This document shows, piece by piece, positions 107-64,000 of a DNA stretch of 64,000 nucleotides. Every line of letters begins with the position of its first letter. The stretch's first letter is position 1. Below the pieces are notes generated by a model. It was given only the letters and a program-made list of their open reading frames with translations, made no database searches and was not told the DNA's origin. The DNA is from Eledone cirrhosa (lineage: Eukaryota), in contig OZ024743.1 of the NCBI GenBank assembly GCA_964016885.1, positions 160,766,001-160,830,000 of the forward strand, read 5' to 3'. Made by a program: the position numbers and the translations under genes.

Positions 107-709
107 CTATAATTTAGAGATCTTCTCTACCTTGGGGCCTTCGATCTTATTGTTGATTTCCAGGAGGATCTCTTCATCGATGGTTTTGATTTTTTCCTCA
201 TTTGTCTGGGCCCTCAATTTAAGAAGTTCAATTTCTGTCTTCATTTTTTCCAATGCCATTCTTTCCTTAAGGTGTCTTTGAGGTTCGGGTTCATTTGGAA
301 TGGACTTTATTTGTATTTTACGGGGGAGAGTTAGAGGGGTTGAGTTAAACCATTTTTCATATATCTCCACTTTGTTGTGATTTTGTATCATCTTCCAGAA
401 TGAGAACTTTCTGTCTCTGATGGATTTGTTCCATTTTGGAATTGTTCGAATTTTTATTTTGTATGAATCAATCTCACATGGTTCTTCGTTGGTTTTTCCT
501 GGGTTGGTAGTAGTGAACATAGTTTGGATAGTATCGCAAAGGTTTTGAAGTTTATCGCCGATTTCGGAGGGTTTGTATCCGGTGACGGTTTCCTCATTTG
601 TGGAGTCAAGTTTGTCGACCAGCACAGATAGGTTGGTGTTAATTTTCTTGAGCTCCTGTAGAATCTCTTCATTTGTGTTGCTACGAGTTGTATCTGTTTT
701 TGTTGGCAT
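107..709 (-). pseudogene. N-terminal, coiled-coil-like part of the Penelope-like ORF (MPTKTD...), interrupted by a stop
   Basis: ORF 107..763 with ATG at 709, directly downstream of the pseudo-LTR. Confidence 0.5.
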
Positions 710-890
710 TTTCTGTATCTCGTGTGAGGATATGATATTTAAAAGAATAGAGGTGTAACACACGAGTTATGATATATTGGTAAAAGGAAAAGAAAATGGT
801 GACAAATTGTTCCCAGTGAAAAGTAGTTTAATTAGGAATAAGTAAAAATTAGTAATAAGTATTGGTTAGTATTCAGTTTTGGTTTTAAGT

Positions 891-4089: not shown

Positions 4090-4090
<1 letters not shown>
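1978..4090 (+). mobile_element. R4/Dong-clade non-LTR retrotransposon (RT + CCHC + RLE), 5'-truncated copy 1, disrupted
   Basis: Motifs GIFQGD, LFMDDLKL, CRIC..ETVAHIVSEC, RHD and PDLVV..DVACP..K. It has stops and a frameshift and is flanked by (AAT)n. Confidence 0.92.
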
Positions 4091-4133
<43 letters not shown>

Positions 4134-4145
4134 TTAATAATAATA

Positions 4146-5896: not shown

Positions 5897-5897
<1 letters not shown>
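4146..5897 (+). mobile_element. R4/Dong-clade element, copy 2 (chimera of copies 3 and 1)
   Basis: ORFs 4150..5541 and 5554..5823 are split by the same TGA seen in copy 1. Flanks are (AAT)n. Confidence 0.92.
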
Positions 5898-5940
<43 letters not shown>

Positions 5941-5952
5941 TTAATAATAATA

Positions 5953-7704: not shown

Positions 7705-7742
7705 AATAACAACAACAATAATAATAATAATAATAATTAATA

Positions 7743-9510
7743 ACCAAAAGCCTAGAGATCTTCAGGGTGGCAGATAACATCAGACAGTTGTTGAGCAAAA
7801 GTATGAAGTCCTGGAAAACAGAGTTATCATCGGGCGGAGAATCCTTGGGAGGCGTGAAGATCAAGAGAGGTATCTTCCAGGGAGATAGCTTGTCTCCTCT
7901 GTTGTTTGTCCTGGCCCTGATCCCCCTGACCAGTGTACTGCGAAAAGTGAGAGTAGGATACAAGTTGGGAAATGGAGAACTTACCATCATTCACTTCCTC
8001 TTCATGGACGATCATAAGCTCTTCGGGAAGAGTGAGAAGCAGTTGGATGTGCTTGTTGACACTGTCCGTATTTTCAGCAATGATATATGTATGCAATTTG
8101 ATATTAGTAAGTGTGGAGTCCTTGTGATGAAGAGGGGTAAATTGAGCAGAAGCAACGGAATCCAGGTACGAACAGGTGAGATGATAAAGGACATTGATAC
8201 TGAAGAAGGATACAAATATTTAGGTGTTCTGGAGGCTGATGACATCAAGAACAAAAAAATGAAGGAATTGATAAGAACTGAATACATTCGGAGAATAAGG
8301 AGCGTATTGAAGTCACATCTGAACAGTAGGAATGCCATAAGTGCAGTAAATTCCCGAGCTGTGTCTATTATTAGGTACAGTGCCGGAATTCTGAGATGGA
8401 ATGTTGCTGAACAAAAAGAAATGGATAGAAAGACTAGGAAGTTATTGACTATCTACAACATGTTCCACAAGAGGAGTGATGTCGATAGATTCTACTTAAG
8501 GAGATCTGAAGGTGGAAGAGGTCTTATCAGCATAGAGAGCTGTGTTCAGATGGAGAAAAACAACCTACGCGAATACGTGACTGATAGTAGGGAGCCAATG
8601 CTCAGAATTGTACAGAAGGAGAGGACAATAGACTAGGAGATGTCCAAGGATGAAATAACAAGAAGGAAGAGCAACCTTCAGGAAAAATCGTTTCATAGTA
8701 CCTTCTTTGAGAAAACTGAATTTAGAGATCCCCAGACATGGAACTGGTTGAAAAGCCGAGACCTTAAAAATGCTACAGAAGGAATGCTAATGGCTGCGCA
8801 AGAGCAGGCCCTCAAAACGAAGTGGCTGAAACATCATATTTACAAGGAGGAGGCTAGCCCACTGTGCAGTATCTGTGGAGAGAGAGAGGAGACTGTGGCT
8901 CACATTGTATCCGAGTGTAAACACCTAGCCCAGACTCACTATAAAGGCTGGAGACATGATGTGATGTGCAGGGTGATCTACTGGGACCTATGCAAAGTAA
9001 ACAATTTACCATATTCTGAGAAGTGGTATGAGTATAAGCCAGAGTCGGTGATGGAAAATGATCAAGTGAAGGTGCTGTGGGATTTTAGGATACAGACGGA
9101 CAAGAAACTCGAACACAATAGACCTGACCTGGTGGCTTTGGACAAGGGAAAAAGATCGCGCCTGATTGTGGATGTGGCCTGCCCATTCGACACGAGAGTG
9201 CAAGAGAAGGAGAGGGAGAAAATTAACCGATACCAGGACTTAAAGTGGGAAGTAAAAAGGATTTGGAACTGCCATGAGGTCAAAGTGGTCCCGATTGTCA
9301 TAGGCTCACTAGGTACTATCTCAAAGAGTTTCCAAGGATGGTTAAAGAAAATTGGTCCCGCCCCGCTTTTTGGAACACTTCAAAAGACATGCTTGCTGGG
9401 AACAGCAAGAACCCTCCGATACGTCCTAAATATCAGAGGCTGCAGGTAGTGACTTGATATTCATTTCAACAAACTTTCCAGTTAACCAACATCAATGACT
9501 GAGACTCAAA

Positions 9511-9786: not shown

Positions 9787-12700
9787 TTACAGACACATAC
9801 TCAGAGAAGGCCCATTCATTCGGGCCATACTTGCTTCTCTCACCCATCTTTCAACAAAATGCTGGGAAGACAGCACTTCCCTCTCTACCCTGATTTTCCT
9901 TTTCAAATGAAATTGAAAAAGTTAATCAGAGCATCACCGAAGAGGTAAGTGCGCGTCTTCAGCCCTTTCAAACGTGTCCACCATACTATCCCTTTCGCCA
10001 TGGCCACCAGACAGATAAAAACTGCCTGCCCTTCCCGGCTAAAGGAAGGGGGCGGGGCAATCCTCACGATGGACTCAGCTGATAGCTGGATCCGTCCTAC
10101 ACGTGACAGCAGGTGTTCGACATAAACCCACAAGTCAGTAATGCTCAGACACTGGACGAATGCGTGCAGGACGGTTTCGTCGCCCTGTGCGCATCTCGGA
10201 TATGCCCGGCTGACGGTACCTCCATGCCTGTAGAGTTTATCCCGAACTGGCAAAGCTCCTCGGTAGCACTGCCAGGCCAGGGATTTCTGGAAGTTGTCCA
10301 TAGGCCCCGGCCCGAAAGTCCTTCCGAAGAGATTGGCTAGTTGATTTTCATCGACGCCTAGAGTTTCTCCAAGTACGTCGTCGCTCTTCCCCTCCACTAA
10401 TCCCCTATAGAACGCCAAGGTGGAGTTTCCACCGATCACATTGCCCGATTGGTCGAGGGCTGTGAGCGCCTGAAGACATTCCAGCCTCCAAGCGCTCCCT
10501 CTCGGTCTTCGCTTGACCCAGGACTGCAGTTCCGTCAAGGAGACGAGCTGGGGAAAAACGTGTCTAGCAAACGGCGACCACACCTGATCACCGTCGAGGA
10601 AGAGGTGGAGATGTCGTAGCCTGAGCGCGTGTCTGCGCATCATCAGCCACGGAATGCCCAGCCCTCCACGTAGCGGGTGTTGACAGCAGATGGACCGCCT
10701 GACTATCGGAGCGCGTCCCTTCCACAAGAAGCGAAAGAGCAAACGCTCCAGCGCAGTCAGGCGGGGCTTAGGACAAGGTACGACGGTCAGGCAGTAGTAG
10801 ATGACGGATGCGATGTACGCATTCGCCACCTCCGCTCGACCTTTCAGGGATAGCTTCCTCTCGGCCCATTTCTGGGTGAGAGAAGCCACCCTGCTCGTCA
10901 ATTCGTCCCAGTTTTTGTCCGTCTGGAGGTCTGGACCGAACCAGACCCCTAGCAATTTAACCGGTCCGTCCGTCCAGCGCCCGACGACGCTGTTGGACGG
11001 CATGGACCTGCCTCTCCAGGTGCCGAGCTGCAGGCCCACTGACTTTTCCTGGTTGATCATTGCTCCTGTCACCGCTTCGTATTCTCTTAGTGTAGTGCCG
11101 ATCGCCTCGATGTGTTTGGCGTTCGACACCACTACGGTGACATCGTCCGCATATGCTGACACGGATCTTCCGCATCCTAGTTCACGCGGGACCCCCTCAA
11201 CGTCTCCAGTTTGTGCAGTAATGGCTCGAGAGTCAATACGTACAATTGGGACGAGAGGGGACATCCTTGGCGGACCGAGCGCATGATGTTGAACGGTTCC
11301 GAAAGGTGACCGTTCACTCTCACTACAGAGCAGATGTCGCTGTGCATGGCAGCGATCCAGCCTCTGATAACGGGCCCAAAGCCAGCCGCACGCAGGACTG
11401 CCGCTAGGTAACGATGGTCGACCCTATCGAAGGCTTTCGATTGATCTAAATTGATCAAAGACCCACCCTTGCCAGGTTCCCTAGCTACCCTCTCTACGAT
11501 GTATCGCATGAGGTGGAGGTTGTCGTGGATAGATCTGTCGGGAATGGCGCATGTCTGTGCCTCTCCCACCATACCACCAACGACAAGCGCCAACCTCTTT
11601 GCTAGCACCTTGGCCAAAATCTTGAACTCTGTGTTTAGCAGAGTTATGGGCCTAAAATTATCTATGTTATCCCCCTTGTTCGGATCCTTTCTCAGCAGCG
11701 CCACCGCTCCTCGGCTCACAGAGCTGGGAATTCTCCCGTTCTGTTGCCAGTTGCAGTAGACGTCCGCCAAGAGGCCTCCGAACAAGTTTGGCATTGTTAC
11801 GTAAAGTTCATAGGGCAGACCATCCAAACCAGGCGATTTACCCCTTGTGCAACTAGTCATTGCATCCCGTACTTCAGCGGTTGTTATCGGCTTTTCGCAA
11901 CACTCCGCCTCAGTGGCCGAAAGCCGCAGCAGTCCGTCGAGGTAGACACTAAATTCCATCCCTCGATACGGCCCGCCACTGCTCCCGAACAGTTGAGCGA
12001 AGTGTCTTTGAAAAGCTTCACACATTTGCCCGGGATCGAGTAGCATGCGCCCGTCGTGGTCCACCAAAGACCGGATCGTGGCTTTGTTGCCACGACGCGC
12101 CTCCGCCACTCGGGCCCATTGAACGGCTTTCGTCCCCTCGTGTCTGAGAGCACGCACCCTAGCTCTGGCAACGCAGCCTTCGTGATTTGCATTGAAGAAT
12201 TGGTCAAGGGCCAATTTCGCCGCAAGTACGTCGGTCGCGATGCCTTTGCTAAGCGCCTCATCTAATTTTCTAACTAGTTCTCCATCTGCTCTATTTTTCT
12301 CTATTGCTAAAGTCTTACTAAACCTAATGGACTCTATTCTAATTGCTCTTTTCAGAGCAAACCACCACTTGTTGTTGACGATGGCCCCCGTCAACGCCCG
12401 CTTAACTAGTTCGCTAATCCGGTCTCTGTAGGCCTTGCGCGCTGGTAAGGACGCGTTTAGCTTCCAGTAGCCGGGTCCTCGCCTATGAAGCCTCTCTAAG
12501 TCAAGCACACAGATCACGAATTTGTGGTCCGTGTAGCTGACTATCTTGAATTGTGGACAGCCTATGCTAGACCTATCTATTTCCCTACAAAATACTCTAT
12601 CTAGATATGATCTGGATGACCCTATGCGATTTGTCCAAGTCCACATTGGTACATTCGGGAAATCCATTCGGTACCTGTCAGACAGTTCAAAACGTCTGAG

Positions 12701-13204
12701 CAGGTTGGTGAGACTCTTGCACCCTCCTTCCCTATCCACCAATGCCACACAATCCCAGCGTGCATCTAAGATCCCGTTCCAATCGCCCACTAACACTAAA
12801 GAGCGGGACGTTCCAAGAAAGGTCTCCAGACGCCGGAAGAAATCAGGCCGCCCTGCTCCTGTCGGGGCATAGACGGCCACTAACCTGAAAGCTTGCCCGT
12901 TTCCGCTGGTCACGTCCAGCACCACCAACTTACCTTCTGGGTCCAGAAAGATGGCCCGTATGGCAAGATCCAAACCTCTCCGAAAAAGCACAGCAACTCC
13001 TCCACCCGATCCCGGACGGCTGGGAGATGCGTACACATCGTAGCCGCCGAAGATCGGTGCGAAAGCCTGTGCTTCGGAGATTCTGGTCTCGCTGATGGCC
13101 ACTACATCTATGTTTAGTGACCTGAGGTCGTTGAGCAGGTGGCCCTGCTTCCATGACGACCCCAAGCCACGCGCATTTATGCTGCCTATTCTGAGTGAGG
13201 TCAT
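9787..13204 (-). pseudogene. Tx1 ORF2 (APE endonuclease + RT + C-terminal zinc finger), frameshifted near 11200 and 9905
   Basis: Motifs SINARGL, GDWN, YLDR, YTDH, KSPGLDG, RQGCPLS, AYADD and ETVLHAFVQC across ORFs 11177..13204 and 9903..11264. Confidence 0.88.
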
Positions 13205-13238
13205 GTTGAAAAGGAGTGGAAAAGATGGGAAAGACCAC

Positions 13239-15233
13239 TTACCTTACTTCTCGTAGGGGAAGGACGGTTTTTCCATCCTTTTCACTGCTTGTGGCCTCCT
13301 CAGGAAGGATGTCCTTATAAATCCTCCTGGAGAGTGCTTGTCGGAAGTCTCCGATGTCTTTGGGGAATTTTTGTTTTAGTGTCATGTACGTTTTCTGTGT
13401 GATGCGAGTGATTTGTATGTGTGGAGGTGGTGTGAATTTTGGGGTTGTTGTGTAGTCTTTTTCTGTGATGCTGGTGTTGTGTTGGATGTAGTGTAATAAT
13501 TGCTTGTTTTTCAAATTTAATGCTGTGTAGTGTGTATCGTTTTGGTTGTTTTGTTTTGTTTGCGTTTGTTGTGGGTTTGTTTCTGTTTCGCATTTTGGTG
13601 ACTTTTGTGGTGTAGGTGATGGTGGTGTTGGAGTTAATGATGGTGATGGTGTTGGTGTTTGGGTTGATGGGGTTGGTGATGCTGGTGTGGATGGTGGCAT
13701 ATCTGTCCTAACTTTTTTGTTTCTTAGTTTATTTGTTTCCCTCTGTATTTTGTTTTTGGAGGGGGAAGGAAGAGAATTTTTTTCTTTTTTGGTTTCTTTT
13801 TTATTTCCGGATATCGTTTCCCACTCCTCGTCGTCACAATCTGTCTCCAGTTGTGATAGGCCGGGGAGTGGAAAATCCTCCACAGGCGTTAGTTTTGGTT
13901 GTGGCGTGGTGGATGGTGTAGGCGGTGGTGCTAGTTCTGAAGCGTTGGGTGGTGGTGGTGTTGGTTTTGCTGGTGGTGGTGGTGGTGTTGGTTTTGATAC
14001 TGTTGCTGGGGTTGTTGCTGTTATAGTTGCTTCTCTTGTTGCTGCTACAGTTGTTGCTGCCATCTCTGCTACTGGTGGTGTTGATGATTGTGTCACTGGG
14101 GTGGGTAGGAGAGGTGGCCTCAACCTTTTAGCCTGAGGGCAGAAAGCCCTTAGGTGGGTTCCTTCACCACAAACGACGCACCTAGGTCTTCTGCCCTGGA
14201 CAATTACCGTGAGGTGGCTGCCGTCAGTGAGGTCTATTACCTCTGGGATCTCCTCAATGTTTTTTTGGTCCGCTTGGATCAGGAGCTCCATCCCAGATCC
14301 GGACCAGTTCTCCTGCTTTTCTTTTGCTATTGCTATTATTTTTGTGTTGGCTTCGATTCCGGCGAGGACGGCCGCTATTAGCCAGGGAATTTTGATGGCC
14401 GGTGGAACGTGGGTCACCCTGATCTTTACGAGTCTCTGGCCACAATAGCTTGGGTCGAGTGTGAAGTCGTCACTTCTTAATGGGGCCATGGAGTGTTCTC
14501 TAGCCTCCTCTGGTGTTTCAAAGAACACGTCCACGGTTCCATACTTCTGCCCACGTCTGATGTGGGTTTTTCTTGCCCACATATGTCCCAAAGCTTTTTG
14601 GATTTGGGACTCGGATGCCCGTTCCACTCGGCGCGATTTTACATTTATCGTTCGATACGACACGGTGCATAGGCGCCGATGCTCCATTTTATTAGGTGGG
14701 GGGTTAGGCTGACCCTGTACCCATCTTTCTTTACTATTTGTTTGGCATTTTCTAAATCCTCCTGAGTTATCGTAAATGCTTCGAATTGTTTTGCTACTCT
14801 GGCGAAACTGGGGGGGGGGGGTTATAATGTCATTGTTGTTGTTGTTGCTATCGTTATTTGTGTTAATATTAATTTTAGTTTCAGTTGTGGTGGTGGTGAC
14901 GTCAGTCGTCTTTGGTGGGGAAGAGTCCATTTTGCTTGATTTCATTTCGACATCACGAGTTAATTTATTTTTTTCTTCTTTTGTTTCTGTTGTAGCGGTG
15001 GTGGTGGGGGTGGTGGTTGTTGCGGTGGTCGTGGTGGTGGAGGCTTTAACACCTGCAGCCATTGGTAATGGCGGGAAATGAATGTCTGCCTGAGACAAAT
15101 TTAAAATATTGCTACTGCTTATACTTTTTGTAGTGTTGGCAAACGTAGTAACATTTACAATGGTGGTGTCGGTGTGAGGTGTTAATTTGTGAGGAAGGCT
15201 TTCGGCTGCTTGGTGCAGAAGTGAATTAGCCAT
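13239..15233 (-). CDS. Tx1 ORF1 (gag-like; CCHC knuckle CVVCGEGTHLRAFC, Pro/Thr-rich tail)
   Basis: Intact 664-aa ORF immediately upstream of ORF2. Confidence 0.85.
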   Translation of the reverse strand: MANSLLHQAAESLPHKLTPHTDTTIVNVTTFANTTKSISSSNILNLSQADIHFPPLPMAAGVKASTTTTTATTTTPTTTATTETKEEKNKLTRDVEMKSSKMDSSPPKTTDVTTTTTETKININTNNDSNNNNNDIITPPPQFRQSSKTIRSIYDNSGGFRKCQTNSKERWVQGQPNPPPNKMEHRRLCTVSYRTINVKSRRVERASESQIQKALGHMWARKTHIRRGQKYGTVDVFFETPEEAREHSMAPLRSDDFTLDPSYCGQRLVKIRVTHVPPAIKIPWLIAAVLAGIEANTKIIAIAKEKQENWSGSGMELLIQADQKNIEEIPEVIDLTDGSHLTVIVQGRRPRCVVCGEGTHLRAFCPQAKRLRPPLLPTPVTQSSTPPVAEMAATTVAATREATITATTPATVSKPTPPPPPAKPTPPPPNASELAPPPTPSTTPQPKLTPVEDFPLPGLSQLETDCDDEEWETISGNKKETKKEKNSLPSPSKNKIQRETNKLRNKKVRTDMPPSTPASPTPSTQTPTPSPSLTPTPPSPTPQKSPKCETETNPQQTQTKQNNQNDTHYTALNLKNKQLLHYIQHNTSITEKDYTTTPKFTPPPHIQITRITQKTYMTLKQKFPKDIGDFRQALSRRIYKDILPEEATSSEKDGKTVLPLREVR

Positions 15234-15457
15234 TTTTTTTCAAAGAAATTTTTTGATAATAATAAAAGTTTAAATTTTGGGCACAAAGCCCCAATCTTTT
15301 TGGGTGTCCTTTTCGGAAAACGATGTATGTGCGCTTATATATGGTTAACAATAAAAAATTTCCATAAATGGCAATTTTTAAGAAACGGAAATAACAAACT
15401 TTTGCGGAGCTCACGATGATACGATTTACTACGTAGGTCGCCAATAATAATAATAAT

Positions 15458-18211: not shown

Positions 18212-21010
<2,799 letters not shown>

Positions 21011-23312: not shown

Positions 23313-23379
23313 TATTTTATCTGATGAGGATTTACTGTTGAAGTTAACTCAGTACCTCTGAAATGTGTATAATAAAATA
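23313..23379 (+). ncRNA. Type I hammerhead with canonical core and extended stem II
   Basis: UAUUUUAU-CUGAUGA-GGA uu UACUG..CAGUA cc UCU-GAAA-UGUGUA-UA-AUAAAAUA; 8-bp stem I. Confidence 0.7.
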
Positions 23380-23474
23380 TACTTTATCACAAGAATATCT
23401 ATTTTGTTAATATTTTGAATTAATATATATATATATGAATTATAAGAATCAAAGAACTGTTCAAAACATGTTTA

Positions 23475-31841: not shown

Positions 31842-33601
31842 CGAAGGAAATGTGGTAAGGAACCAGGTGGACCATAACGCACCAAAGTACTCAATACTTG
31901 AGGTAGTAGAGTGGGTAATAGGAACCAGTAGGACCCCGACAGCTGAGCTCAAGCCGTTTCGACAATCACTTTGACCATATATGGTCAAAGTGATTGTCAA
32001 AAATCAGTAGTAATTCTGTGGTTGCAAATTAGTAGGGGAGATGGTGGCTAAACCTGCCAGTAAGAGAAAGAGGGGAGGGGGTGGAGTAGACCCAATCAAG
32101 CGTTGGTAGTACCAGCTACAGCTGGGCATGAGGTCAAAGAAGATACAGGGGAGGGGGAGGGGGAGGAAGTCGGAACGGTAGGTAGAACAATGGGGGGTAG
32201 AAATATATAGAAAAGCAAATAAGTGTAAAGAAAAAAGTAAAGTAAATTAAATTCTACGACCTAGGTGTCAGGCTATTGGTAGGCTAGAATAAAATAAAGA
32301 AAGAAAGAAAGAAGTAAATAAATAAATAAATAAATAACGAAAAAAGTAAAAGAACTAGGTGGGACGGAATAGGCAAGGACCCTTTTAAGAGGTATAAGTA
32401 CGTAAATGATACGGTGACGGGTCAACAAAAGGGGCCAAATACTAAAGAGACTACCACGAAATACACAATAAAGGTTTCCATCCCGGGCCAGCAACGACCC
32501 AGTGCAGCAAAGTGAACTTGTACGAGATAGTAATTCTGAGTCCCGAGAAAAATATATACTAATGCTAACTCTAAAAGATCTAAGACAAGCTACATGAAAG
32601 TTCGTACGAAATAAAGGTAGAATACGGAGAAATAAATTCAGAATCCCCCCCGCCCAGAAGAAAAGCGAAGCAAGAGATACTGAAACGAAAAAATAAGGCA
32701 TAAGTGCCACTAAGAAATATAGAGGGCACAGAGAATAGTGGGAGCGGTCGGAAAAAGGGGGCAAGTATCCGGGGTCTAAGCCAACTGCTATAAAGGGCGG
32801 AGTCCGCCAAATCTATCATAGACTAGGGGAGGGGGTGGTGGGGTACTAAGGCTACATGGGGCCAAAGGGCAGCCTCGGGTGGGCGAGAAAAGACGCCGAC
32901 AAAGGAGAAGAGCTGGGGTAGAAGGACAAAGGAGAGAGGGGGGAAGGAAATAAAGGAAGCGATAAAAGAATACAAAGAAGATCTTACGTCTTCCTTGGCA
33001 AGCAGGGGTTACCCATTGCAAAATCGGCAAGTGGGGTGTTATAGCCCTAGTCTACCCCCCCCCCCCCCCCCCCCCCGGGTCATTATGGGGTTTGAGGGCG
33101 AGGTAAGTCCTACGCAATCTATGTTTACATGCAGTAACCAGTTCATCTTTCTTGTTTAGGAGTTGGTCCGTCGAAAACAGCATTTGTAAAGTTTCCTCCG
33201 AGCATAAATTGCACGGACGGCGTCCTCCCGTGTAAGAATTGGCTCTGGACAGTAATCTCCAAGTGAGATCATAGGTGATGTTGTTGTCCTTGAGGTCCCA
33301 TATGTGGCCCGAAAGAGTAGTGGCGTGACGCAGGGCCGGGTTTCGGAAGGTATGTCTATGTTGGTATAGCCGGGTCTTGAAGTCACATGCGGTAAGTCCT
33401 ATATACTGGCAGGTTTAGCCACCATCTCCCCTACTAATTTGCAACCACAGAATTACTACTGATTTTTGACAATCACTTTGACCATATATGGAATTACCCC
33501 TTGAGAAGATCGGCTATTTAAATACCAGGATAAATTTTCATTTAGTCCAGAATTAGCCGTCGAAACGGCTTGAGCTCAGCTGTCGGGGTCCTACTGGTTC
33601 C

Positions 33602-39931: not shown

Positions 39932-41836
39932 TAATAAATTTGAAGACTAAAATCCAAAGAGGGCTCGATAATGATAAATATATATCAAATATATAAGAAC
40001 CGTAGAGCAAATATTTATTAAAATAACAGATTAAAATTTAAGCAAAGAATCGCTGCTTTCACCCTTAACGGGATCTTCTGAAACTAACAAAGTCAATCTG
40101 TGAACGCAGAAGTGGATATTTCAAAAAACGTTGCAACCGGAGGAAGACAGGAAGACGATACTTTGGTTCGTGGAAACGTTCCCTGGCAAAGAACGGGAAA
40201 AAACGAATATAAAACGTCATTAATAGGAGCGGTGAAAAACAATTACGCGCAAAGACAGAACCACGTTTATGGTATAAAAGAAGTCGTAGACTAATCTTCT
40301 CTTAGGTGGTTCATAGAGACGTTCTCTAGCAATGAACGGAAAAAACGAAGATAATACGTCATATGTGGGGCGTGGAGAACAATTGCACGCAGAGACAAAA
40401 CCACGTAAATGGTATAGCTGAAGTCGTAGACTAAAATTCTAACTAGGAGACCGAAAGAATCTCCGTTTCAGAGTAAAGAATAAAGTAAATAAATACAATA
40501 CAGGGGTAATATAAATTAAATAAATGCATACACAAATTCAAATACGTACATACACAAGCATACGCAAAACACTTGCTTTAGGTATACAAAACCACGCACA
40601 TATAAATATGTGTGTGTGTGTGCGTGTATACAAATAAATAATTAAATAAACGTATATTAATAAATAAATACGTATATAACAAGCGCACCCACATACCTAC
40701 ATGTAAATACACAAATGTTCGAAGACGTAAGTCAGCCATAACATGAAGTACACAAATACACACGCCCTACATACGTACGAACCTGCATACACACGCAGAC
40801 GCAAAACTCCCGTATACACATAACCAAACCATATGTACCAGAAAATATAAAAAATGTATACGCCACAACATAATCAATCAAATATACGTATGAGAAAGTA
40901 TACGTACCTTCACAAAACATACAGGTAATATATACTTACCTATGCAAATAAGTAATGGTATAAACAAAACATATACTTAGCTACCACATCAAGACGTAAA
41001 AAAATCCACGTATAGATCCTACTATCCGTTAGGGTATAATGTGGGGCTGTAATACAGGAAAATTTTGTGCAATTTATGTTTACAAGCCGAAATTGCCTCA
41101 GATTTTTTTGTTTAAGGTGTGGTCTGTGGCGTAGAGTATTTCCAGGGCCTCGGCGGCGCAGAGGTGACATGGTTTTTTATTTCCGTTATACGATCTAGCC
41201 CTAGCTAGGATCTCCCAGTGTAACTTATATTGGGTGTGGTTGTCTTTTAGACTCCAGAAATAAGCTGAAAGTGAGGTCATATTCCTTCTAAGAGGGTAAC
41301 GAAAAGAATGGGAATGCATGTAAAGACGCAGCTTGAATCTATTGGCGGTTAACCCTATGTAGACCCTACGGGACGTGGGTGTTTCAACCTTACATTTGTA
41401 GACAATGTTACTAGAGAGGCATTTCCCGGATAGGGGGCAATCGACCCGATTCCTACAAATACAGTTAGTACTAACTACAGGCTTGCACGTGTTCCTTCGG
41501 TTAGGTAGTTTAGCTAAATTTGAAACTGTGATGTTATGTGCAAGGTTAGGAGTCGTAGAGTAAGAAATTTTAATAGTATTTCTATTAAAAATTTTACTAT
41601 ATTTATGTGTAGGGGGAAAATGCTTCGTAATAAGGGAAAGAAAGATCTTAGCTAATGGTGTGGCCACCTCCATATTATATGGTGGGTTATACCAACAAAT
41701 GCGACGGGATCTATTACGTCTAGGTCTATCTTCGTCCTCTGCGTTTACAGATTGACTTTGTTAGTTTCAGAGGATCCCGTTAAGGGTGAAAGCAGCGATT
41801 CTTTGCTTAAATTTTTAATCTGTTATTTTAATAAAC
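39925..41836 (-). mobile_element. Penelope-like element family B, 5'-truncated, with an inverted pseudo-LTR at the truncated end
   Basis: GIY-YIG ORF present; 40014-40111 is inverted relative to 41738-41836; (TA)n flanks; hammerhead-like motifs at 40035-40085 (-) and 41763-41813 (+). Confidence 0.88.
41098..41673 (-). pseudogene. Penelope GIY-YIG endonuclease fragment
   Basis: CICRNRVDCPLSGKCLSSNIVYKC..VYIGLT..FKLR..H, followed by CHLCAAE. Confidence 0.85.
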
Positions 41837-43994: not shown

Positions 43995-46805
43995 GCATGA
44001 CATCAGTCAACGCGATCAGTTGCATATTTTGGCGTCGGAGACTATTCATTAAATTTAAGATGAATACTATCTCCAACAGTAATGCCACAACTACCAGTCA
44101 TATTGAATAACTGGATATTCTTCTACCTATATCTACTGAAGACACCTTTTATTCGAATTCGTGTAGATATCCGACTAAATACATAATTCATTTTACAAGG
44201 ATATGCTACAAACAGCATGGCTGAACATAACAACAAAAACATCAGTGGAGTACCGCAGAATAATGAGAAAGGTAAATAAAATTTATTCAGACAAATAACA
44301 AAGAAGGTAATCAAACTTTATTCAGTTGTAGCTACAGAAGAAACCAAAATTATGAATCGCATTTCTCTTGGAGTTGCGAACTTCATGATGATTTATTTAA
44401 TTGTTATAAAATGGCAAAAGAACAATCCCTCCATTGGCTATATGAACAGAATGAAGCTACACTGGGATGAAATATATCCAGAGCTAAATCACTTCACAGC
44501 GAAACAATTACGCCAACAAGCGACGTTTGTTGAACGTTAAAATAAGATAAATATGATTAATTGTAAGTCCCCCACAACAAACATGGAATCAAGAAAACGT
44601 GCTACAAGTCCCCATGCTACTAGACTTCCTAGCAGCCAGGTCGAACAGTTCCTTGAAACAACTATGCCTGTAAGAAATTTGACACCACGTGTACCATCAA
44701 AGTCTACCTCGAATGCTGGGTAAAACACTATCGATAATAATAATAATCGAATAATAATAATAATAATCGAAGAACTTTGACACCACGTGTACCATCCGAG
44801 TCTACCTCGACTATTGTGGAAAATACTATCGATAATGATAATAATCAAAAGTATAAACAATTGAAAATTTCCCTCAACGAAATCTTCCAGAGAGAAATTA
44901 ATTCATGTATAAACATTTCTCTTGTTGAAAGTTTTAAAACAACAATATTTAATAAAAAACCAAATAATGTAATATTACGTGTTATTGACGAAATAGGGAT
45001 GAATATTTACAACGGAAAAAAACCCTAACACTTTGGCAAATCAACGCCTGTTTATATGCCTTAGCAACGACAGTAAAGCATTATCTTGGTGATAGCAGAT
45101 ATATTAACAAGAACAAAACACCAACAAAAATACCATCATATATAACTAAAATAGAAAAAAAGATTGCTGACCTACGAAAAACCATAGGATATGTGACAAT
45201 GCTCCTTACATGCAAACAAACACAAAAAACCTCACTCCTCACCAACAAAGAGTGAAAAATAAAATAGAGACGATGTTTGGTAACAGTAGAACCAGAACTC
45301 TTCAATATAAGCTGATTACCCTCAAACAAGAATTGACAGATGTTAGCGAAAAAGACCGATACCTGAAGAAGGTAGATGAAAGAAAAGTGCTTAATAAAAG
45401 ATTCAGACGAAACCAAACATCAGTCTATAGAGATATGAAGGTCAAAATAATAAGTGTCACTGAGGCCCCATCCCAGAAAGACAGATTCCTTTTGGAGAAA
45501 AATATGGGGTGAAAAGAAGAATTTCCACCAAGATGCAGTGTGGCTAAAAGAATTCCTAAAGAACTATTGAGGGTACCCTTGAGATTGTGATAGGAAAACT
45601 CCAAGATAAGAAAACACCAGGAGGAGACATGATTGTCGGCTATTGGTACAAAAAACCGATATTCTATCGGAGGGGTCTTACTGACCTCTACCAACAAGTT
45701 CTTAAGGGTGATACACTTATACCAGAATGGTTGACATTAGCACAAACGTTACTGGTCCCCAAGAACAAAGACACCCACTTGGCAAAAATGCACCGACCCA
45801 TTGAATGCCAGAACCGGATGTATAAGATGTATACAGCCTGCCTGAACCTATTCCTCCAAGATCACTGTGAAAATAATAACATCATCACAGATGAACAAGC
45901 AGCTGGGAAGAAAGGGGTTTGCGGAAGTGCTGAACAACTCCTAATCAACAAAACTGCGATGTCGGAGGTGCGACAACTTAGGAGGAGTATGGCTACAGTC
46001 TGGCTGGACTACAGGAAAGCTTTCGATTCTGTTCCCCACTCTTGGAGTAATGAGGCTCTTTGACTTGCTAAAGTCCCAGACATTATTATCAGAGCCATAG
46101 AGAAGCTGTCTTCTTTTTGGGTTACTATCCTAAAGTTAAAGACAGAGAAGGAGGACTCTATTTTCACTGATAAAATAAAATATCGCAGGGTTATATTTCA
46201 GGGAGACAGTCTCTTTGTGATATTATTCATCCTGTCATTAAACCCCTTGTCCTTTCTGCTCAACAAATGTGAAGGATACATCATTGGCTCACAGGAGGAC
46301 AGAAATACGAACCTAACCCATAATTTCTTTGTGGATGATCTGAAACTCTATGCCAAGAACATGGATGGGATGAAGAAAAATCTTGACCTCGTTACAGCAT
46401 TCTCAAAGGATATAGGAATGGAGTTTGGCCAAGATAAATGCTCATATATGACTGTAAAGCGGGGAAATACAACAACCCAATCTAGCCACATTGTCATCAA
46501 TGGCCTAACTGTTTCACCGATATCTGATGAGGACTGTTACAGATACCTGGGGATAGATGAGAACATATCCTATAATGGTATCTGTAATAAGGAACGCGTA
46601 ACAAGGGAATACCGATTAAGAAATATATGGTCATCGGAACTCTCTGCGCAAAACAAAACAGCGGCTCACAGTGTGTTTGCTGTGCCTGTCCTAACACCAA
46701 CTTTTGGAATACTCAATTGGACGATAGACGAAATCCGAGCGATTGATGTTGGAACTCGAAAAATACTAAACAACACCGGAAACTTCCACATCAACAGTGA
46801 CATTT
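43995..46805 (+). mobile_element. (CATA)n-associated R4-like element, 5' end through RT, disrupted and 3'-truncated
   Basis: WLDYRKAFDSVPH and FFVDDLKLY; starts right after (CATA)n, at the same point as 58885. Confidence 0.85.
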
Positions 46806-47477
46806 CACTGGATTTCCCAGAAAATAAACCATGAAATTCAAGAAGCTTTGATAATCAGTTCTTCAATATAATCAGTTATAGAATGATACAAGTAGATAAA
46901 TAAATGATATAACTGACAAACCAGAAATTATGAATTAGTTCAAATAAATCTGAAGAAATTTTCAATAAATTTTCATAAAATTTAGAACTTATCAACTAGT
47001 TCAAAGACATTATCACTTAGTTCAAAGATATTCTCAACTAGTTCAAAGAAAGTATCAATAAAGCTAAAGATTTCAAAGGAAAAATCAATTGTTTCAAAAA
47101 CTTAATTATTAATACGAAATTAGCAATAAATTCAAAGTAATTACGAACTAGTTCAATGGAATTAGTAACTAGTTCAAATGTTTTCAGCACTGAAACGCAT
47201 CACACTAAATAAAAATATTTCTCGAAAGAGTATTTCTGACTGATTGGTTTAGAGGAAGTGCATCAGTATTTCCTATTGTTATTTCCGATACATAATTAGT
47301 TCATTAGACAGCATACTGCTGTATTACCTATGGCTATGAGTAGATAATTTATAATCCAATTATAAAATATGTACCTTACACATTAACTCTCTTGATTGGC
47401 TTTCTATGATCTCTCCAGCCAGGACTATATATCTGTTGATAGACTGCTTTCACTGCTCGTTAATCTATGTGAAGCCA

Positions 47478-47667
47478 TGGAAGGCGGTGGATTGGCAGTA
47501 TCGGTAGAGGATCGGACGCCATGCTTTCCAGCATAGTTACGTCCCTTTACGATCTGAGTTCAAATCCCGCCGAGGTTGACTTTGCCTTTCATCCTTACGG
47601 GGTCGATAAAATAAAGTACTAGTAATGCACTGGGTAATTGCTGGCCTTGTGCCTAAAGTAGAAACAA
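47478..47667 (+). mobile_element. Full-length tRNA-derived SINE with an 18-bp target-site duplication
   Basis: TSD ttaatctatgtgaagcca at 47460-47477 and 47668-47685; A and B boxes present. Confidence 0.92.
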
Positions 47668-47775
47668 TTAATCTATGTGAAGCCAGCGAGGGAGCTTCAA
47701 CATGGTTACGCTACTTGTTTGAAACAGCAGCTATATTTCCATCAATTCCGATCATAGCACTTACAAAAAGAATAA

Positions 47776-48043
47776 TGGTTTCTACTTTTGGCACAAGGCC
47801 AGCAATTTTCCCAGTACATTACTGGTACTTTATTTTATCGACCCCGTAAGGATGAAAGGCAAAGTTAACCTCGGCGGGATTTGAACTCAGACTGTAAAGG
47901 GACGTAATTATGCTGGAAAGCATGGCGTCCGACTCTCTACCGAATGCTTTCCAGCATAATTACGTCCCTTTACGCTTTACGGTCTGAGTTCAAATCCCGC
48001 CGAGGTTAACTTTGACTTTCATCCTTATGGGGTCGATAAAATA
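47776..48043. mobile_element. SINE on the minus strand (47776-47943) fused to an inverted partial SINE on the plus strand (47944-48043)
   Basis: Same family as 47478-47667. Confidence 0.85.
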
Positions 48044-48174
48044 AGAATAATAGATAATATATTTGGGCGGAAAGTGAAATATGGTCTCGTCACATTTATA
48101 ATTCCTTTTGATCTTATGTCTGCTTGGTCAAAATGGATGCGAGGCTAAAAAACAACAATAACTACTAGAGTAGT

Positions 48175-48224
<50 letters not shown>

Positions 48225-48446
48225 TGATGTTTGTCATAAGTTAATCAAGTGTGATGGAGCATGTGCATGTTCTCTCATGGTCAGATTGATGCGACCAATA
48301 ATCTGTAGTTTAATGTCTGAAGGAAAAGCGTAAGATCGAAATTTGTGTTTTAATCTGAGTTCATGAAACCTGCTATAAGCATGCAATGAATAACATGCCG
48401 TAGTGTTAAATCTAGGAGTATGTTATTAAGAGGTGATAAACCGCGA

Positions 48447-48659
48447 TTGCCAATAAAAATACACGCACCTGTTGGATTCACTTCAATTTATTATAAATTT
48501 CCGGTTGGCTGGTTGGTTGGTTTTATGACTGCATGGTAGTTTGTTTATATATTGTTACAGCTCTATAAACAACCATCTGGTTATCGAACCAACCAACTAA
48601 CCGGAAATTTATAATAAATTGAAGTGAAAACCATTAGGTGCGTGCGTTTTTATTGGCAA
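48447..48659. mobile_element. MITE-like hairpin with terminal inverted repeats of about 75 bp
   Basis: ttgccaataaaaa..cacttcaatttattataaatttccggtt and its reverse complement at 48587-48659. Confidence 0.65.
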
Positions 48660-48734
48660 CATGACCCTCCCAAAGTATAACAATACCTCTTTCAACACAC
48701 GTTTTCAGATAAGAGACCTTGCAAAACAAATTCA

Positions 48735-48772
<38 letters not shown>

Positions 48773-49031
48773 GGAAAAAATGAAACGAAATTTCATTTCC
48801 CACTCTTAGTACGGCTGTTACTTAAATATAAGTATGTACACCTACATACATATATGTATACAGACGTACAGTAGTATGTATATATATACATACATGCACA
48901 CATATATATATGTACGTATGGATTCACCGAACATTTATTATAATGCTAGGTGTGTTTGTAAACAAATATCCCGTATTAAGCCGTAGTGTCTAGCAACCAT
49001 CGTTGTTCGTTTGTTCAACACTGACAAAGGA

Positions 49032-49074
49032 ACGCTGTACTAGTTTCAAGCTTATTAGCTATCGTCAGCAACGT
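49032..49074 (-). ncRNA. Type I minimal hammerhead with canonical core
   Basis: ACGUUG-CUGACGA-uAGCU aaua AGCUu-GAAA-CUAG-UA-CAGCGU. Confidence 0.88.
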
Positions 49075-49455
49075 ATACCTTCCTGCCAAATTGTTGAACG
49101 TATATACTTACCTTATGCATATTAACGGCTGAGTAGCCCAATTTGCATATCGAGTGGGTTAATCGGCCGGGTGCACCGTAAACGATAAACGGGAAAAAAA
49201 TGAAACGAAATTTCATTTCCCACTCTTAGTACGGCTGTTACTTAAATATAAGTATGTACACGTACATACATATATGCATACCGACGTACAGTAGTATGTA
49301 TATATATATATACATACATGCACACATATATATATGCACGTATGGTTTCACCGAACATTTATTATAATGCTCGGTGTATTTGTAAACAAACATCCCGTAC
49401 TAAGCCATAGTGTCTAGCAACCATCGTTGCTCGTTTGTTCAACACTGACAAAGGA

Positions 49456-49498
49456 ACGCTGTACTAGTTTCAAGCTTATTAGCTATCACCAGCAACGT
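49456..49498 (-). ncRNA. Second hammerhead copy with mutated core CUGGUGA
   Basis: Stems identical to 49032-49074; A6G change. Confidence 0.75.
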
Positions 49499-49553
49499 AT
49501 GCCTACCTGCCAAATTGTTGAACGTATATACTTACTTTATGCATATTAACGGC

Positions 49554-49598
<45 letters not shown>

Positions 49599-58884: not shown

Positions 58885-61800
58885 CATGCATGACATCAGT
58901 CAACGCGATCAGTCGCATATTTTGGCGTGGGAGACTATTTATTAAATTTAAAATTAATATTATCTCCGACAGTAATGCCACAACTACAGCCAGGTTGAAT
59001 AACTGGTTATTCTTCTAACTTTCCCTTCTGAAGACACCTTTTATTCGAATTCGTGTAGATATCCGACTAAATACATAATTCATTTTACAAGGATATGCTA
59101 CAAACAGCATGGCTGAACACATCAACAAGAAAATTAAAGAAGTATCGAAGACAAATAACAAAGAAGGTAATCAAACTTTATTCAGCTGTAGCTACAGAAG
59201 AAACCGAAATTATAAATCGCATTTCTCTTGGAGTTGCGAACTTAATAATGATTTATTTAATTATTATAAAATGGCAAAAAACAATCCCTCCATTAGCTAT
59301 ATGAATAGAATGAAGTTACACTGGGACGAAATGCACCCAGAGCTAAATTATTTCACAGCGTAACAATTACGCCAACAAGCGACGTTTGTTGAACGTAAAA
59401 ATAAGATAAATATTATTAATTGTAAGTCCCCCCACAACAAACATGGAATCAACAACACGTGCTACAGATCGCCATGCTACTAGACTTCCTAGCAGCCAGG
59501 TCGAACAGCGCCTTGAAACAATTATGCCTGTACCATCTAAGTCTACTTCGAATGCAGGGGAAAACACTATCGATAATAATAATAATCGAGGAAATAATAA
59601 TAATAATCGAATAAATGTGACACCACGTATACCATCCGAGTCTACCTCGACTCTTGTGGAAAATACTATCTATAATGATAATCAAAAGTATAAACAATTG
59701 AAAATTTCCCTCAACGAAATTTTCCAGAGAGAAATTAACTCATGTATAAATATCTCTCTGGCTGAACGTGTTAAAATCACAATGGTGAATAAAAAACCAA
59801 ATAATGAAATACTACGTGTTATTGACGAAATAGTGGATGAATATTTACGACGGATAAAAACCCCAACGTTTTGGCAAATCAACGCCTGTTTATAATCCTT
59901 AGCAATGACAGTGAAGCATTATCTTGGTGATAGCAGAGATATTAACAAGAACAAAACAGCCCCAAAAATACCATCATGTATAACTAAAATAGAAAAAAAG
60001 AGTGCTGACCTAAGAAAAACATAGGACATGTGATAATGCTCCTTACATGCAAACAAACACAAAAAACCTCACTCCTCACCAACAAAGAGTGAAAAATAAA
60101 ATAGAGACGATGTTTGGTAACAGTAGAACCAGAACTCTCCAATATAAGCTGATCACCCTCAAACAAGAATTGAGAGCTGTTAGCGAAAAACGCCGATACC
60201 TGAAGAAGGTAGATGAGAGAAAAATGCTTAATAAAAGATTCAGACGAAACCAAACATCAGTGTATAGAGATATGAAGGGCAAAATAATAAGCGTCACTGA
60301 GGCCCCATCCCAGAAAGACATAGATTCCTTTTGGAGAAAAATATGGGGTGAAAAGAAAAATTTCAACCAAGATGCAGTGTGGCTAAGAGAAATCCGAAAG
60401 AACTATTGCTCCTACACTACAACAAAAACATACGAAATAAGTGAGGGTACCCTTGAGACTGTGATAGGAAAACTCCAAGATAAGAAAACACCAGGAAGAG
60501 ACATGATTGTCGGCTACTGGTACAAAAAACTGATATTTTATCGGAGATATCTTACTGACCTCTACCAACAAGTTCTTAAGGGAGATACACTTATACCAGA
60601 ATGGTTGACATTAGCACAAACGTTACTGGTCCCCAAGAACAAAGACACCCACTTGGTAAAAAACTACCGACCCATTGCATGCCAAAACCTGATGTATAAG
60701 ATGTATACAGCCTGCCTGAACCTATTCCTCCAAGATCACTGTGAAAATAATATCATCACAGATGAACAAGCAGCTGGAAAGAAAAGGGTTTGGGGATGTG
60801 CTGAACAACTCCTAATCAACAAAACTGCGATGTCGGAGGTGCGACAACTTAGGAGGAATATGACTACAGTATGGCTGGACTACAAGAAAGCTTTCGATTC
60901 TGTTCCCCACTCTTGGATGATAGAGGCCCTCCAACTTGGTAAAGTCGCCGACATTATTGTCAGAGCCATAGAGAGGCTGTCTTCTTCTTGGGCTACTATC
61001 CTAAGGTTAAAGACAGAGAAGGAGGACTCTATCTTCACTGATAAAATAAAATATTGCAGGGGTATATTTCAGGGGGACAGTCTCTCTGTGATATTGTTCA
61101 TCTTGTCATTAAACCCCTTGTCCTTTCTGCTCAAGAAATGTGAGGGATACATCATTGGCTCACAGGAGGACAGAAATACGAACCTAACCCATAACTTCTT
61201 TGTGGACGATCTGAAACTCTATGCCTAGAACATGGATGGGATGAAGAAAAATCTTGACCTGGTTACAACGTTCTCAAAGGATATAGGAATGGAGTTTGGT
61301 CAGGATAAATGCTCATACATGACTGTAAAGCGGGGAAAAACAACAACCCAATCTAGCAACATTATCATCAATGGCCTAACTGTTTCACCGATATCTGATG
61401 GGAGTATCAGGGAGGCAGAGGCATAACATCAGTCCAGACAACATTTGAATGTCGCATCATATCTCTCCAACAACATCTACGAACCTCGAAGCGTAGGAGC
61501 CCGCTTCTCGAGCAAGTCTATCTGCATGAAACAGATAAGATCATGAGAGTTGGGAAGGAACTCCTTGAGAGATATTCCCTGTGTGATAATCAAAAACTCA
61601 CACCCAGGGATGTCGCTCAGCAGTATCTCAGTGAATCCATGGATGAAAAACTGCATGCCTATCAGCAAAATATCATGCATGGATATCTTGCCAGGAATCT
61701 CCAAAGTGAGAGTAATGTAGATAAGGAAAGTAGTCTATCTTATGTCTTTATGCAGAACTGATGAGAAATCTGCAGATACTCCACCCTGATTACACCTTCA

Positions 61801-62184
61801 GATTTATGCCTGTGATTATTGGGGCACTGGGATATGTTAGTAACTGCCTCAATACAAATCTTGAGAAGCTAGGCTTCACAGGAACAGAAAGAACACAACT
61901 AGTTAGGAAATTACAAGTACAATCCATTAATGGAACAGTAAAAATATGTAAAACATTCCAAAAATGTGCATCTAATAACTGCATATACACATGTACAGAT
62001 ACAACTCAAAACATACACATCCACACATACAATAATATCCATATCTACACATGCATGCATGCAGACATACATACATATCTACCTAGTTGATGTGTAAATT
62101 CCAATGAGAGAGTCTTGTGTCTATGTTAGAAACCGACTCTCTCTCTCTATTGGTTAAACTTTGTGAAATCATAAAACCAGAAGA
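58885..62184 (+). mobile_element. (CATA)n-associated R4-like RLE element with both termini, internally deleted
   Basis: ORF 60047..61228 has NYRPIAC, DYKKAFDSVPH, GIFQGD and FVDD. C-terminus PVIIGALG. (CATA)n on both sides. Confidence 0.88.
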
Positions 62185-62206
62185 ACATACATACATACAT
62201 ACATAT

Positions 62207-62702
62207 ATGTTGCCAGGAAGCTCCAGAGTGAGAGTAATATAGATAAGGAAAGTAGTCTATCTTGGACCAACAACCGCTATATTGGCTCCCACTTTGAAGG
62301 ATACGCTTTTGCAATCCAAGAACAGGAGATTAACACGCAATACGTGATTCACAAAAGAGATAGGGATGCAGGCAAAACACCTAGATGGGATAACAAGTGC
62401 AGACTCTGCAGAACTAACACCGAGGATATCACCCATGTCATCAGCAGCTGTCCAAAGATGTCATCGCGGTACTATCTACCTATGAGGCATGATGAAGTGG
62501 CCAAAACACTGTACAATGCAGTTCGTAAAAAAGATAGCCCCGATAATAAACACAATAAAAGCTACAGCAATGTGGAAGATATCCACGTACATAATATGAA
62601 AGAGTACTGGCGGAATGATCCAGTAAAAACCCCAATAAAATGCAGGCATAGATCATATATTATGATATGGGACAGGGAGAAGAAAGCATGCACAATAGTG
62701 CA
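62207..62702 (+). mobile_element. Internal fragment of the same family (CCHC, RHD and start of RLE)
   Basis: CRLCRTNTEDITHVISSC and RHD in ORF 62344..62739. Confidence 0.8.
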
Positions 62703-64000
62703 AGCTTTCGAGTACGGCCACTACTTTATATCCATGTAGGAGAACCCCTACCGATGCGCTGAACGAGTGTGACTTTTTAGTCCAGCCAGCGACTTGAAAA
62801 CTCTGGTACAAACACTACACTTGTGACAATTATTGACACATAGTGCTGGGCCCATGGTACCATGTGACGACAAGTGCAGAGAGATCTCCAGATATAAAGC
62901 AATGCCTGTGCCGTGAAGCTTTTATATACATACATACATACATACATACATACATACATACATACATACATACATACATACATACATACATACATACATA
63001 CATACATACATACATACATACATACATACTTGAGAGTGTGAAGTGCGAAACAAGTACAACGGTAATATAAAATATAAAAATAGAGTTTTATGAAACGAAG
63101 AGCGGTAGAAGCAACAGATGAATACAAAGGATCGAGGAAGGAATACATTGTACCTTAAGTAACCGGAAGTCTTTACAGCACATATTTCTGCGGTATAAGT
63201 GAATGGCCGCCAAAGAGAAGATTACTAATATGCAAACACCATACAAAACAACTTCTCACGGGCTGGTATATTTAAGACTATTATTGCTGGTTCTACAAAT
63301 AATTTCTATATTTTCTCGGATTTATCTGCTTCAGAGTAACTTTTTATCTTAGTAGTAGAATGCAAATCTATTGTAGGTAGCTTTAAATCACTGTCAGAAT
63401 TGAACTTAGCACTACATATCTGGATCATAGACTTAATCTATTATTCAGTTTAACACTATTACTCGACTTTGGACTTTTTAGTGTTCATTCTTCTGAAAGC
63501 ATTCAGATTAGTTCACTGATCTGTGAATAATCCTTCTCTCCACCCGTCTCTGAAGCCTTACAAATAATCAGATGCGTTCCTTTGTCTTCTCTCACTAAGC
63601 CATTAAAAAGGTTAAAGGATCATTTTTGAAGTTTCATAAGATACTACGGCTTTCGATAGTCAGCTATATGTCTGTGTTGTATCTACTTACTGCTAAGTGG
63701 ACTGAGTCGATTGGAATTAAGTACATTAGTAAAAGACACACTCGTCAGTGTATAAACCTCCGACTACTCCGATTCAATATTGATTTGACCATTTATAATC
63801 TATACAGAGAAGATGGTAATTAGGTAATACCAGACTATCCTTCTGCCTGTTGTTAATACAGAGGCTGTTGATTAGCAGTCACTAATTGGACGTGAAATGT
63901 CAACGGAGTCTAGAAAATGCGAATATTGTATCAAAATCTCATTGAATATATGGAGGTATGGAGCAACTTGTAAAGACCCTGTTGGTTTAAATGTCATTTA

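Follow-up and report, generated by a model that had tools for sequence, protein, structure and literature searches.

Metazoan tandem retrozymes consist of non-coding units of 150-450 bp, with a GC content below 50% and one type I hammerhead ribozyme each (PMC7229834), and the mussel retrozymes described in the same work already represent molluscs. The usual metazoan hammerhead comprises a 6-bp helix I, a 4-bp helix II and a 1-2-bp helix III with a palindromic loop, and ribozymes with so short a helix III and such a loop are reported to need dimers (PMC4209133), while the catalytic core is invariant apart from position 7 (U7) (PMC2837043). Retrozymes have been termed active where they carry two consecutive complete ribozymes (10.64898/2026.07.22.740005). 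Penelope-like elements (PLEs) have been proposed as retrozyme movers mainly on the basis of co-occurrence and pseudo-LTR homology, and a 2020 review states that no conserved motif of metazoan retrozymes gives a clue to their mobilising enzyme (PMC7761336). PLE insertions themselves carry a signature in the form of an inverted, 5′-truncated copy with a tail often found at one end only (PMC8557442), and an anole PLE was shown in vitro to use two internal reverse-transcription starts, with both AT-rich target strands being cut and extended (PMC11167929). A literature search that reached few subscription papers returned nothing direct on cephalopod retrozymes or on long and short insertion ends, and supplements may list such families. 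Neither fixed long and short 3′ ends nor inverted arms were found in the available text of PMC7229834, where the word "inverted" has 0 occurrences, and the terms "ribozyme" and "retrozyme" have 0 occurrences in the accessible main text of an octopus repeat annotation (PMC13282606).

The window, a 64,000-nt stretch of Eledone cirrhosa contig OZ024743.1, contains a tandem non-coding unit between two (TA)n runs, which we assign to retrozyme family A (Table 1). It has a period of 424 nt, 1.9 copies and 94% matches, and its right boundary lies at about 49557. Each unit carries a minus-strand type I hammerhead, the two cut sites predicted in the preliminary description lie 424 nt apart, and the canonical (CUGACGA) and mutated (CUGGUGA) cores were both read in the units to which they had been assigned. 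The longest ATG-started frames are of 50-53 codons and low complexity, in agreement with the earlier view that no meaningful ORF is present. The tandem arrangement, the low GC content, the one type I hammerhead per unit and the lack of an ORF uphold the identification as a retrozyme, while its non-coding and non-autonomous nature is borne out by the absence of a reverse transcriptase (RT) or GIY-YIG ORF from the unit. The 3′ piece of the insertion stops at the long end typical of family A, and since both junctions lie inside (TA)n, a target-site duplication cannot be read. The dispersed fragment noted earlier could be mapped to a separate insertion elsewhere in the window, which shares 84% identity with the unit and lacks the ribozyme. 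An inverted-repeat element lies to the left of the retrozyme (window 48300-48740), and the stretch 48560-48740 represents the sequence after the hammerhead of another PLE type, seen also in loci L078 and L164, so that the window retrozyme sits in the terminal (TA)n of that element. A composite element made up of the retrozyme and this left flank was considered and rejected, as the flank occurs alone in many loci and constitutes the pseudo-LTR end of the other PLE.

Table 1. Coordinates of the family A retrozyme features in the window.
Feature	Position	Strand	Remarks
Single-arm insertion, retrozyme family A	48767..49557	-	5′-truncated piece, one full unit and 3′ piece
5′-truncated piece	49462..49557	-	monomer positions about 327-424
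Upstream hammerhead, mutated core	49456..49498	-	CUGGUGA 49492-49486, A6G at 49489; predicted cut 49462/49461
Full cut-to-cut unit	49038..49461	-	424 nt, 38% GC, predicted strongly self-paired
Downstream hammerhead	49032..49074	-	intact core, U.U at 10.1/11.1, palindromic stem III; predicted cut 49038/49037
Predicted stem I extension past internal loop	49023..49087	-	49087-49078 pairs with 49030-49023
3′ piece	48767..49037	-	monomer positions 1-277
58-nt "tail"	48767..48822	-	between short end (219, about 48823) and long end (277); predicted hairpin
(TA)n target, 3′ junction	about 48740..48769	.	adjoins 3′ piece
(TA)n, 5′ junction	about 49557..49595	.	adjoins 5′-truncated piece
Separate, more-diverged, 5′-truncated family A insertion	20814..20999	-	in (TA)n; monomer positions 79-264

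Family A shares with the non-LTR retrozymes of corals, mussels and axolotl its thousands of copies, a predicted self-paired monomer and coexistence with PLEs, but its 424-nt unit is at the upper end of their size range, it has a U.U mismatch at positions 10.1/11.1, and its insertions in (TA)n leave no target-site duplication that could be resolved (PMC7229834). Cleavage and circles have furthermore been shown for retrozymes of that work, whereas family A is known from its sequence and both properties are predicted. It fits the metazoan non-LTR retrozymes in all features that can be judged from sequence, except for the G10.1-C11.1 pair and, at the window locus, the presence of two intact cores. 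The class is already known, and family A itself is as such not surprising.

In the downstream hammerhead, stem I is formed by the pairing of 49074-49069 with 49037-49032 (6 bp, one G-U), and is followed on the minus strand by CUGACGA (49068-49062), a 4-bp stem II with an AAUA loop, GAAA (49047-49044), CUAG and GUA. With a helix I of 6 bp, a helix II of 4 bp and a short palindromic helix III all present, its form is that of the usual metazoan hammerhead and not of the minimal PLE type; the palindromic stem III noted earlier stands. The U.U mismatch takes the place of the usual G-C at positions 10.1/11.1, and is also found in retrozyme family B and in a Hydra-like PLE (see below), while family C/D has G-C. 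Stem I is predicted to resume beyond an internal loop. When folded as a single strand, stems I and II form and the 2-bp stem III does not, and the double-hammerhead fold was not obtained by cofolding two 46-nt ribozyme copies. The covariance-model search suggested earlier was run as an Rfam scan of the window and gave 65 matches at E≤1, none of them to a hammerhead family. The miRNA matches among the Rfam results correspond to TA-rich hairpins, fall below threshold and were discarded. Family A resembles satellite 2 of newts and axolotl and pDo500 of crickets in its very short helix III and palindromic loop, and in the compensatory changes in stems I and II (PMC7229834, PMC2837043, PMC6155905). 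For satellite 2 and pDo500, the very short palindromic helix III implies cleavage as double hammerheads. In contrast to the blocks formed by these satellites, family A is mostly found as short dispersed insertions with PLE-type ends.

Copy number was determined across the 3.0 Gb genome by exact-match counts with reversed-sequence controls. The 20-mer just past the cut gave 14,003 matches, against 0 for its control, and the 34-nt ribozyme gave 6,010, again against 0, which shows that the window motif is not a product of chance; leaving the first seven core letters of the ribozyme free raised the number of matches to 6,669. The long-end/(TA)n junction is likewise present in 2,444 exact copies (control 0). 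Three retrozyme lineages share a common architecture, namely A (424 nt), B (310 nt) and C/D (466-468 nt). Family C/D (loci L259-L288, L100 and L255-L258) can be aligned to A along its length, gave 5,307 pattern matches, and is distinguished by a GUU or GUC triplet, with some of its arrays being 100% identical. Family B, with 9,220 exact matches to its ribozyme, shows no alignable similarity to A and is a very young retrozyme. Its loci (L125-L137, for example G000:C1:36479000-36498999) contain arrays in head-to-head orientation, the longest with about 25 near-identical units, and it represents the best system for testing rolling-circle copying.

Conservation of the core across copies, raised as a further check in the preliminary description, was evident in two sets, with the core intact in 87/100 and 73/94 copies, some of those scored as non-intact being truncations. 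To avoid the bias of loci picked by their ribozyme, one set was drawn from the first 100 hits of an anchor outside the ribozyme; the recurrent ribozyme changes in it are a stem I swap and changes at the 10.1/11.1 mismatch, at position 7 and in loop II. The stem I swap affects pair 391/3, where U-G is replaced by G-U, and in contigs from four public runs (kind unrecorded) the common ribozyme variants fall only on this pair and on loop II. Contigs from two runs of other organisms (X6 and X8; low depth, run kind unrecorded) span most of the unit, and the ribozyme differs in them only at the 391/3 pair, in loop II and at position 7. A fixed-length descriptor was furthermore used to compare nine ribozyme types common in families A, B and C/D, which were chosen by the authors from these three lineages. 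All 117 cells pair; in 9 of the 13 pairs both partners change, CUAG gives way to CGCG as the stem III palindrome, and the core is constant apart from position 7; the shuffle control of this covariation does not translate into a probability, as the types were hand-chosen and are not independent. Since single copies decay after insertion while the fold is kept by compensatory changes, selection acts on the transposing lineages rather than on each copy, and it is in these lineages that the hammerhead fold is, to judge from the sequences, selected. The monomer is predicted to be strongly self-paired (z -6.56, 0/100 shuffles), a value partly inflated by TA-rich palindromes, as is the 69% of positions predicted to be paired in the circular form.

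The upstream hammerhead of the window copy, which carries A6G, is predicted to be weak or dead. Its CUGGUGA core has 4 matches genome-wide, at 2 loci, a rarity that indicates decay rather than a subfamily, and a mobile CUGGUGA subfamily was accordingly ruled out. Whether the ribozymes act as single or as double hammerheads, one damaged core removes one of the two cuts, so that at most one cut would be made in cis and a monomer could probably not be set free by the window copy itself; the release of a 424-nt monomer from this locus, as initially put forward, was thus not borne out. Its transcript may be cleaved in trans by other transcripts. Two consecutive complete ribozymes are absent at the window locus, where one of the two cores is intact, and are present at many other family A loci (for example L024, L098 and L147).

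The ends of the insertions were counted in 81 loci, after the removal of 19/100 overlapping views or duplicates, and head-to-head pairs and flanks in 109 loci, after the removal of 21/130. Among the 116 3′ ends, 53 lie at monomer positions 262-282 (37 exactly at 277) and 44 at 213-226 (34 at 219), and a TA run follows 33/53 ends of the long class, 27/44 of the short class and 3/19 of the others. Family A thus has two fixed 3′ end points, 277 and 219, which are 58 nt apart and joined to (TA)n, while the 105 5′ ends are scattered over positions 35-395. The end points of family C/D (235 and 304) align with those of family A, and those of family B are located at positions 139 and 165. The 59 head-to-head pairs comprise 36 with a long and a short end, one long+long, one short+short and 21 with an off-class end, such that 36/38 classifiable pairs are long+short; four of the 36 represent local duplicates at L138. 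As in PLEs, including the Hydra clade, family A shows partial tandems, 5′ truncation, an inverted 5′ copy, a tail at one end, a (TA)n microsatellite target, a type I hammerhead and two internal end points, although it has no ORF and its 58-nt tail is longer than the 30-40 bp of PLEs (PMC8557442, PMC11167929). In comparison with the PLEs examined here, its ends lie 219-277 nt past the cut, and family A shows no sequence homology to their pseudo-LTRs. The proposal of Penelope-type mobilisation is strengthened by the fixed long and short ends, the inverted arms and the (TA)n junctions, and the 58-nt tail may represent the region where reverse transcription starts. The value of family A is mechanistic, in that the PLE signature is seen at scale, in 2,444 identical long-end junctions and 36/38 long+short pairs.

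The abundant PLEs of the genome have open frames of 784 and 758 codons, along with a third type, and no fewer than three PLE types ending in (TA)n are present side by side. A protein search returned no clade name. By its motifs (DKT, RWR and CxCX5C), the 758-aa family resembles the Hydra clade, which is characterised by DKT, RWK, CxCX5C, a hammerhead, (TA)n insertion and a short element. The candidate partner at L252 has the hammerhead and (TA)n insertion and differs in its RWR motif and in its size of about 5 kb, rather than under 3 kb. This abundant Hydra-like PLE (L252:4541-9700, L254 and L218-L247) has intact 758-codon frames and a hammerhead that combines the U.U mismatch with a full stem III; it is also represented by numerous tiny head-to-head insertions comprising little more than two ribozymes. 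Its ribozyme gave 7,549 matches, with the same U.U mismatch as family A, and is identical to that of family B at 25/28 letters. The two end points of the element, both in (TA)n, lie about 21 and 89 nt beyond its cut; 22 loci yielded 14 short ends, 13 long ends and three read-throughs, with 8/8 head-to-head pairs being long+short, and two end points in (TA)n are likewise seen in other hammerhead-bearing families. Among 50 PLE loci of two families, no terminal sequence common with family A was found, a relaxed ribozyme pattern used in the search for an autonomous parent revealed only family D among the matches listed, and a tail motif shared by family A and PLEs was too weak to be claimed. Family A is comparable to the Xenopus retrozymes derived from PLE pseudo-LTRs, which are likewise non-autonomous, tandem and co-occurring with PLEs, the match between the family B and PLE ribozymes forming a further parallel. 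It differs in that no parent pseudo-LTR was found and in that its arrays look multimer-inserted, not only locally expanded (10.64898/2026.07.22.740005).

We suggest, with a probability of roughly two in three, that family A is a non-coding retrozyme, the predicted self-cleaved and circularised monomers of which are copied from circles into (TA)n by a Penelope-like enzyme. Transcripts of tandem source copies would be cleaved at paired hammerheads, presumably acting as double hammerheads, into 424-nt monomers, which would likely circularise through ligation by a host ligase. A Penelope-like RT/GIY-YIG protein would then copy these into (TA)n sites, with copying initiated within the unit and continued across the cut site, both nicked target strands being primed at positions 277 and 219 of a putatively circular template. 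The window copy would represent a single-arm product that has since decayed, with damage to one of its ribozymes. The specific form of rolling-circle reverse transcription in which one Penelope-like complex primes both nicked (TA)n strands at two points of one circle, yielding inverted multi-unit arms, we consider evenly poised between right and wrong. The U.U mismatch, the 2-bp stem III, the missing Rfam call, the mosaic and higher-order arrays and the decay of cores argue against the circle-based reading.

The nature of the template can be addressed through the cut site, which is run through in 96/100 units, 93 of them with no indel within 6 nt, while 4/100 units start at the cut, against 4.4 for an even distribution of the 54 starts within range. 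The template must as such be a circle or an uncut multimer and not a cut linear monomer. The same element and PLE enzyme may instead use an uncut multimeric transcript, with the hammerhead cutting rarely or serving another step and circles not being transposition intermediates, an alternative we hold to be unlikely, though a serious one. It accounts equally for the passage of the cut site, and also for the mosaic and 2-unit arrays, the U.U mismatch and the weak stem III, and is in line with the anole PLE, for which uncut RNA is the main substrate and ribozyme-dead RNA was inserted normally (PMC11167929). The compensatory changes, in contrast, point to a fold that is selected in the transposing lineages, and although insertions are 5′-truncated, family B forms arrays of 16-25 near-identical units with private variants in both arms, for which a monomer bottleneck is needed. 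Such private variants in both arms are found in young arrays of family B (L132 and the second array of L135/L136, where each unit carries them) and family A (L024 and L093), the family D arrays in L276 and L282 are 100% identical, and identical units make up 6/6, 6/6, 17/25, 13/19 and 8/16 of family B arrays; the inverted arms of family A differ by a median of 2.8%, against 4.8% between loci. The young arrays favour a monomer bottleneck. Mosaic family A arrays (L013, L029 and L147) and higher-order repeats of two units (L093 and L098) or four units (L095-L096) are nevertheless not explained by one monomer circle without later recombination. The 2-unit arrays of L093 and L098 alternate strictly, one of their two ribozymes carrying a stem-weakening change; they were discounted as proof of dimer circles, as the 4-unit repeats of L095-L096 point to expansion after insertion. 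Contigs from two runs guessed to be RNA match only the TA-rich part of the unit, and by their nature do not inform on strand, ends or circles. In the Xenopus study, one of nine retrozyme dimers was cleaved in vitro (10.64898/2026.07.22.740005).

Local expansion after insertion clearly takes place, as seen in the 4-unit higher-order repeats of the L094-L096 array and in the whole-insertion duplicates at L138 and L015-L019. In the model proposed for vertebrate retrozymes (10.64898/2026.07.22.740005), a single satellite monomer or detached pseudo-LTR would be inserted at each site and then multiplied locally by unequal crossing-over. We regard this as improbable for family A, since multimers are frequent in both inverted arms, which retain their fixed long and short ends, and since a template that already crosses the cut is needed for most of the insertions longer than 277 nt. 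Still less credible, to the point of being nearly dismissed, is the notion that the unit represents no more than a pseudo-LTR belonging to a coding Penelope element outside the sample. PLE protein matches do occur in 28/109 loci, and about 110 of several thousand insertions were sampled, but the unit is closed upon itself, no junction to sequence outside the family is common to the 67 free 5′ flanks, and between the unit and the two closest PLE ORFs on the same strand (581 and 676 nt off) lie a (TA)n run and the pseudo-LTR belonging to those ORFs. A coding junction, which the preliminary description had named as evidence against a retrozyme, was not found among the 109 loci. With PLE-signature ends, intact PLE ORFs and very young sister families in one genome, the identity of the enzyme and the choice between circle and multimer become directly testable; if the circle-based reading is true, the three retrozyme lineages and the intact Hydra-like element would provide a ready system for proving both the mobilising enzyme and the circular template. 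Arrays of family A range from one to about 50 units, the largest being that of L094-L096 (G000:C1:51772400-51793800), which is a retrozyme turning into a satellite.

Additional mobile elements can be observed in the window, the microsatellites and SINE-like repeats of which have an octopod character. A 5′-truncated, frameshifted PLE with part of the RT and a GIY-YIG domain (PF01541) is located at 19536-20701 (-), belongs to a family with many intact 784-codon copies, and borders directly on the (TA)n in which the dispersed retrozyme fragment lies, while the region 107-766 (-) matches a 455-codon frame located upstream of the 784-codon ORF in full-length tandem copies of a PLE. C-terminal fragments of Hydra-like PLE ORFs, judged by eye, are found at 33052-33414 (-) and 41098-41760 (-). 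Another type I hammerhead of a common family, with an 8-bp AT-rich stem I and a long stem II, is present at 23313-23380 (+), with (TA)n about 51 nt past its cut. LINE-like RT fragments occur at 2079-9449 (+), as a near-tandem series, at 9903-15239 (-), as a two-ORF element, and at 45560-46834 (+) and 60014-62739 (+). SINE-like copies, in both direct and inverted orientation, are clustered at 47460-48050.
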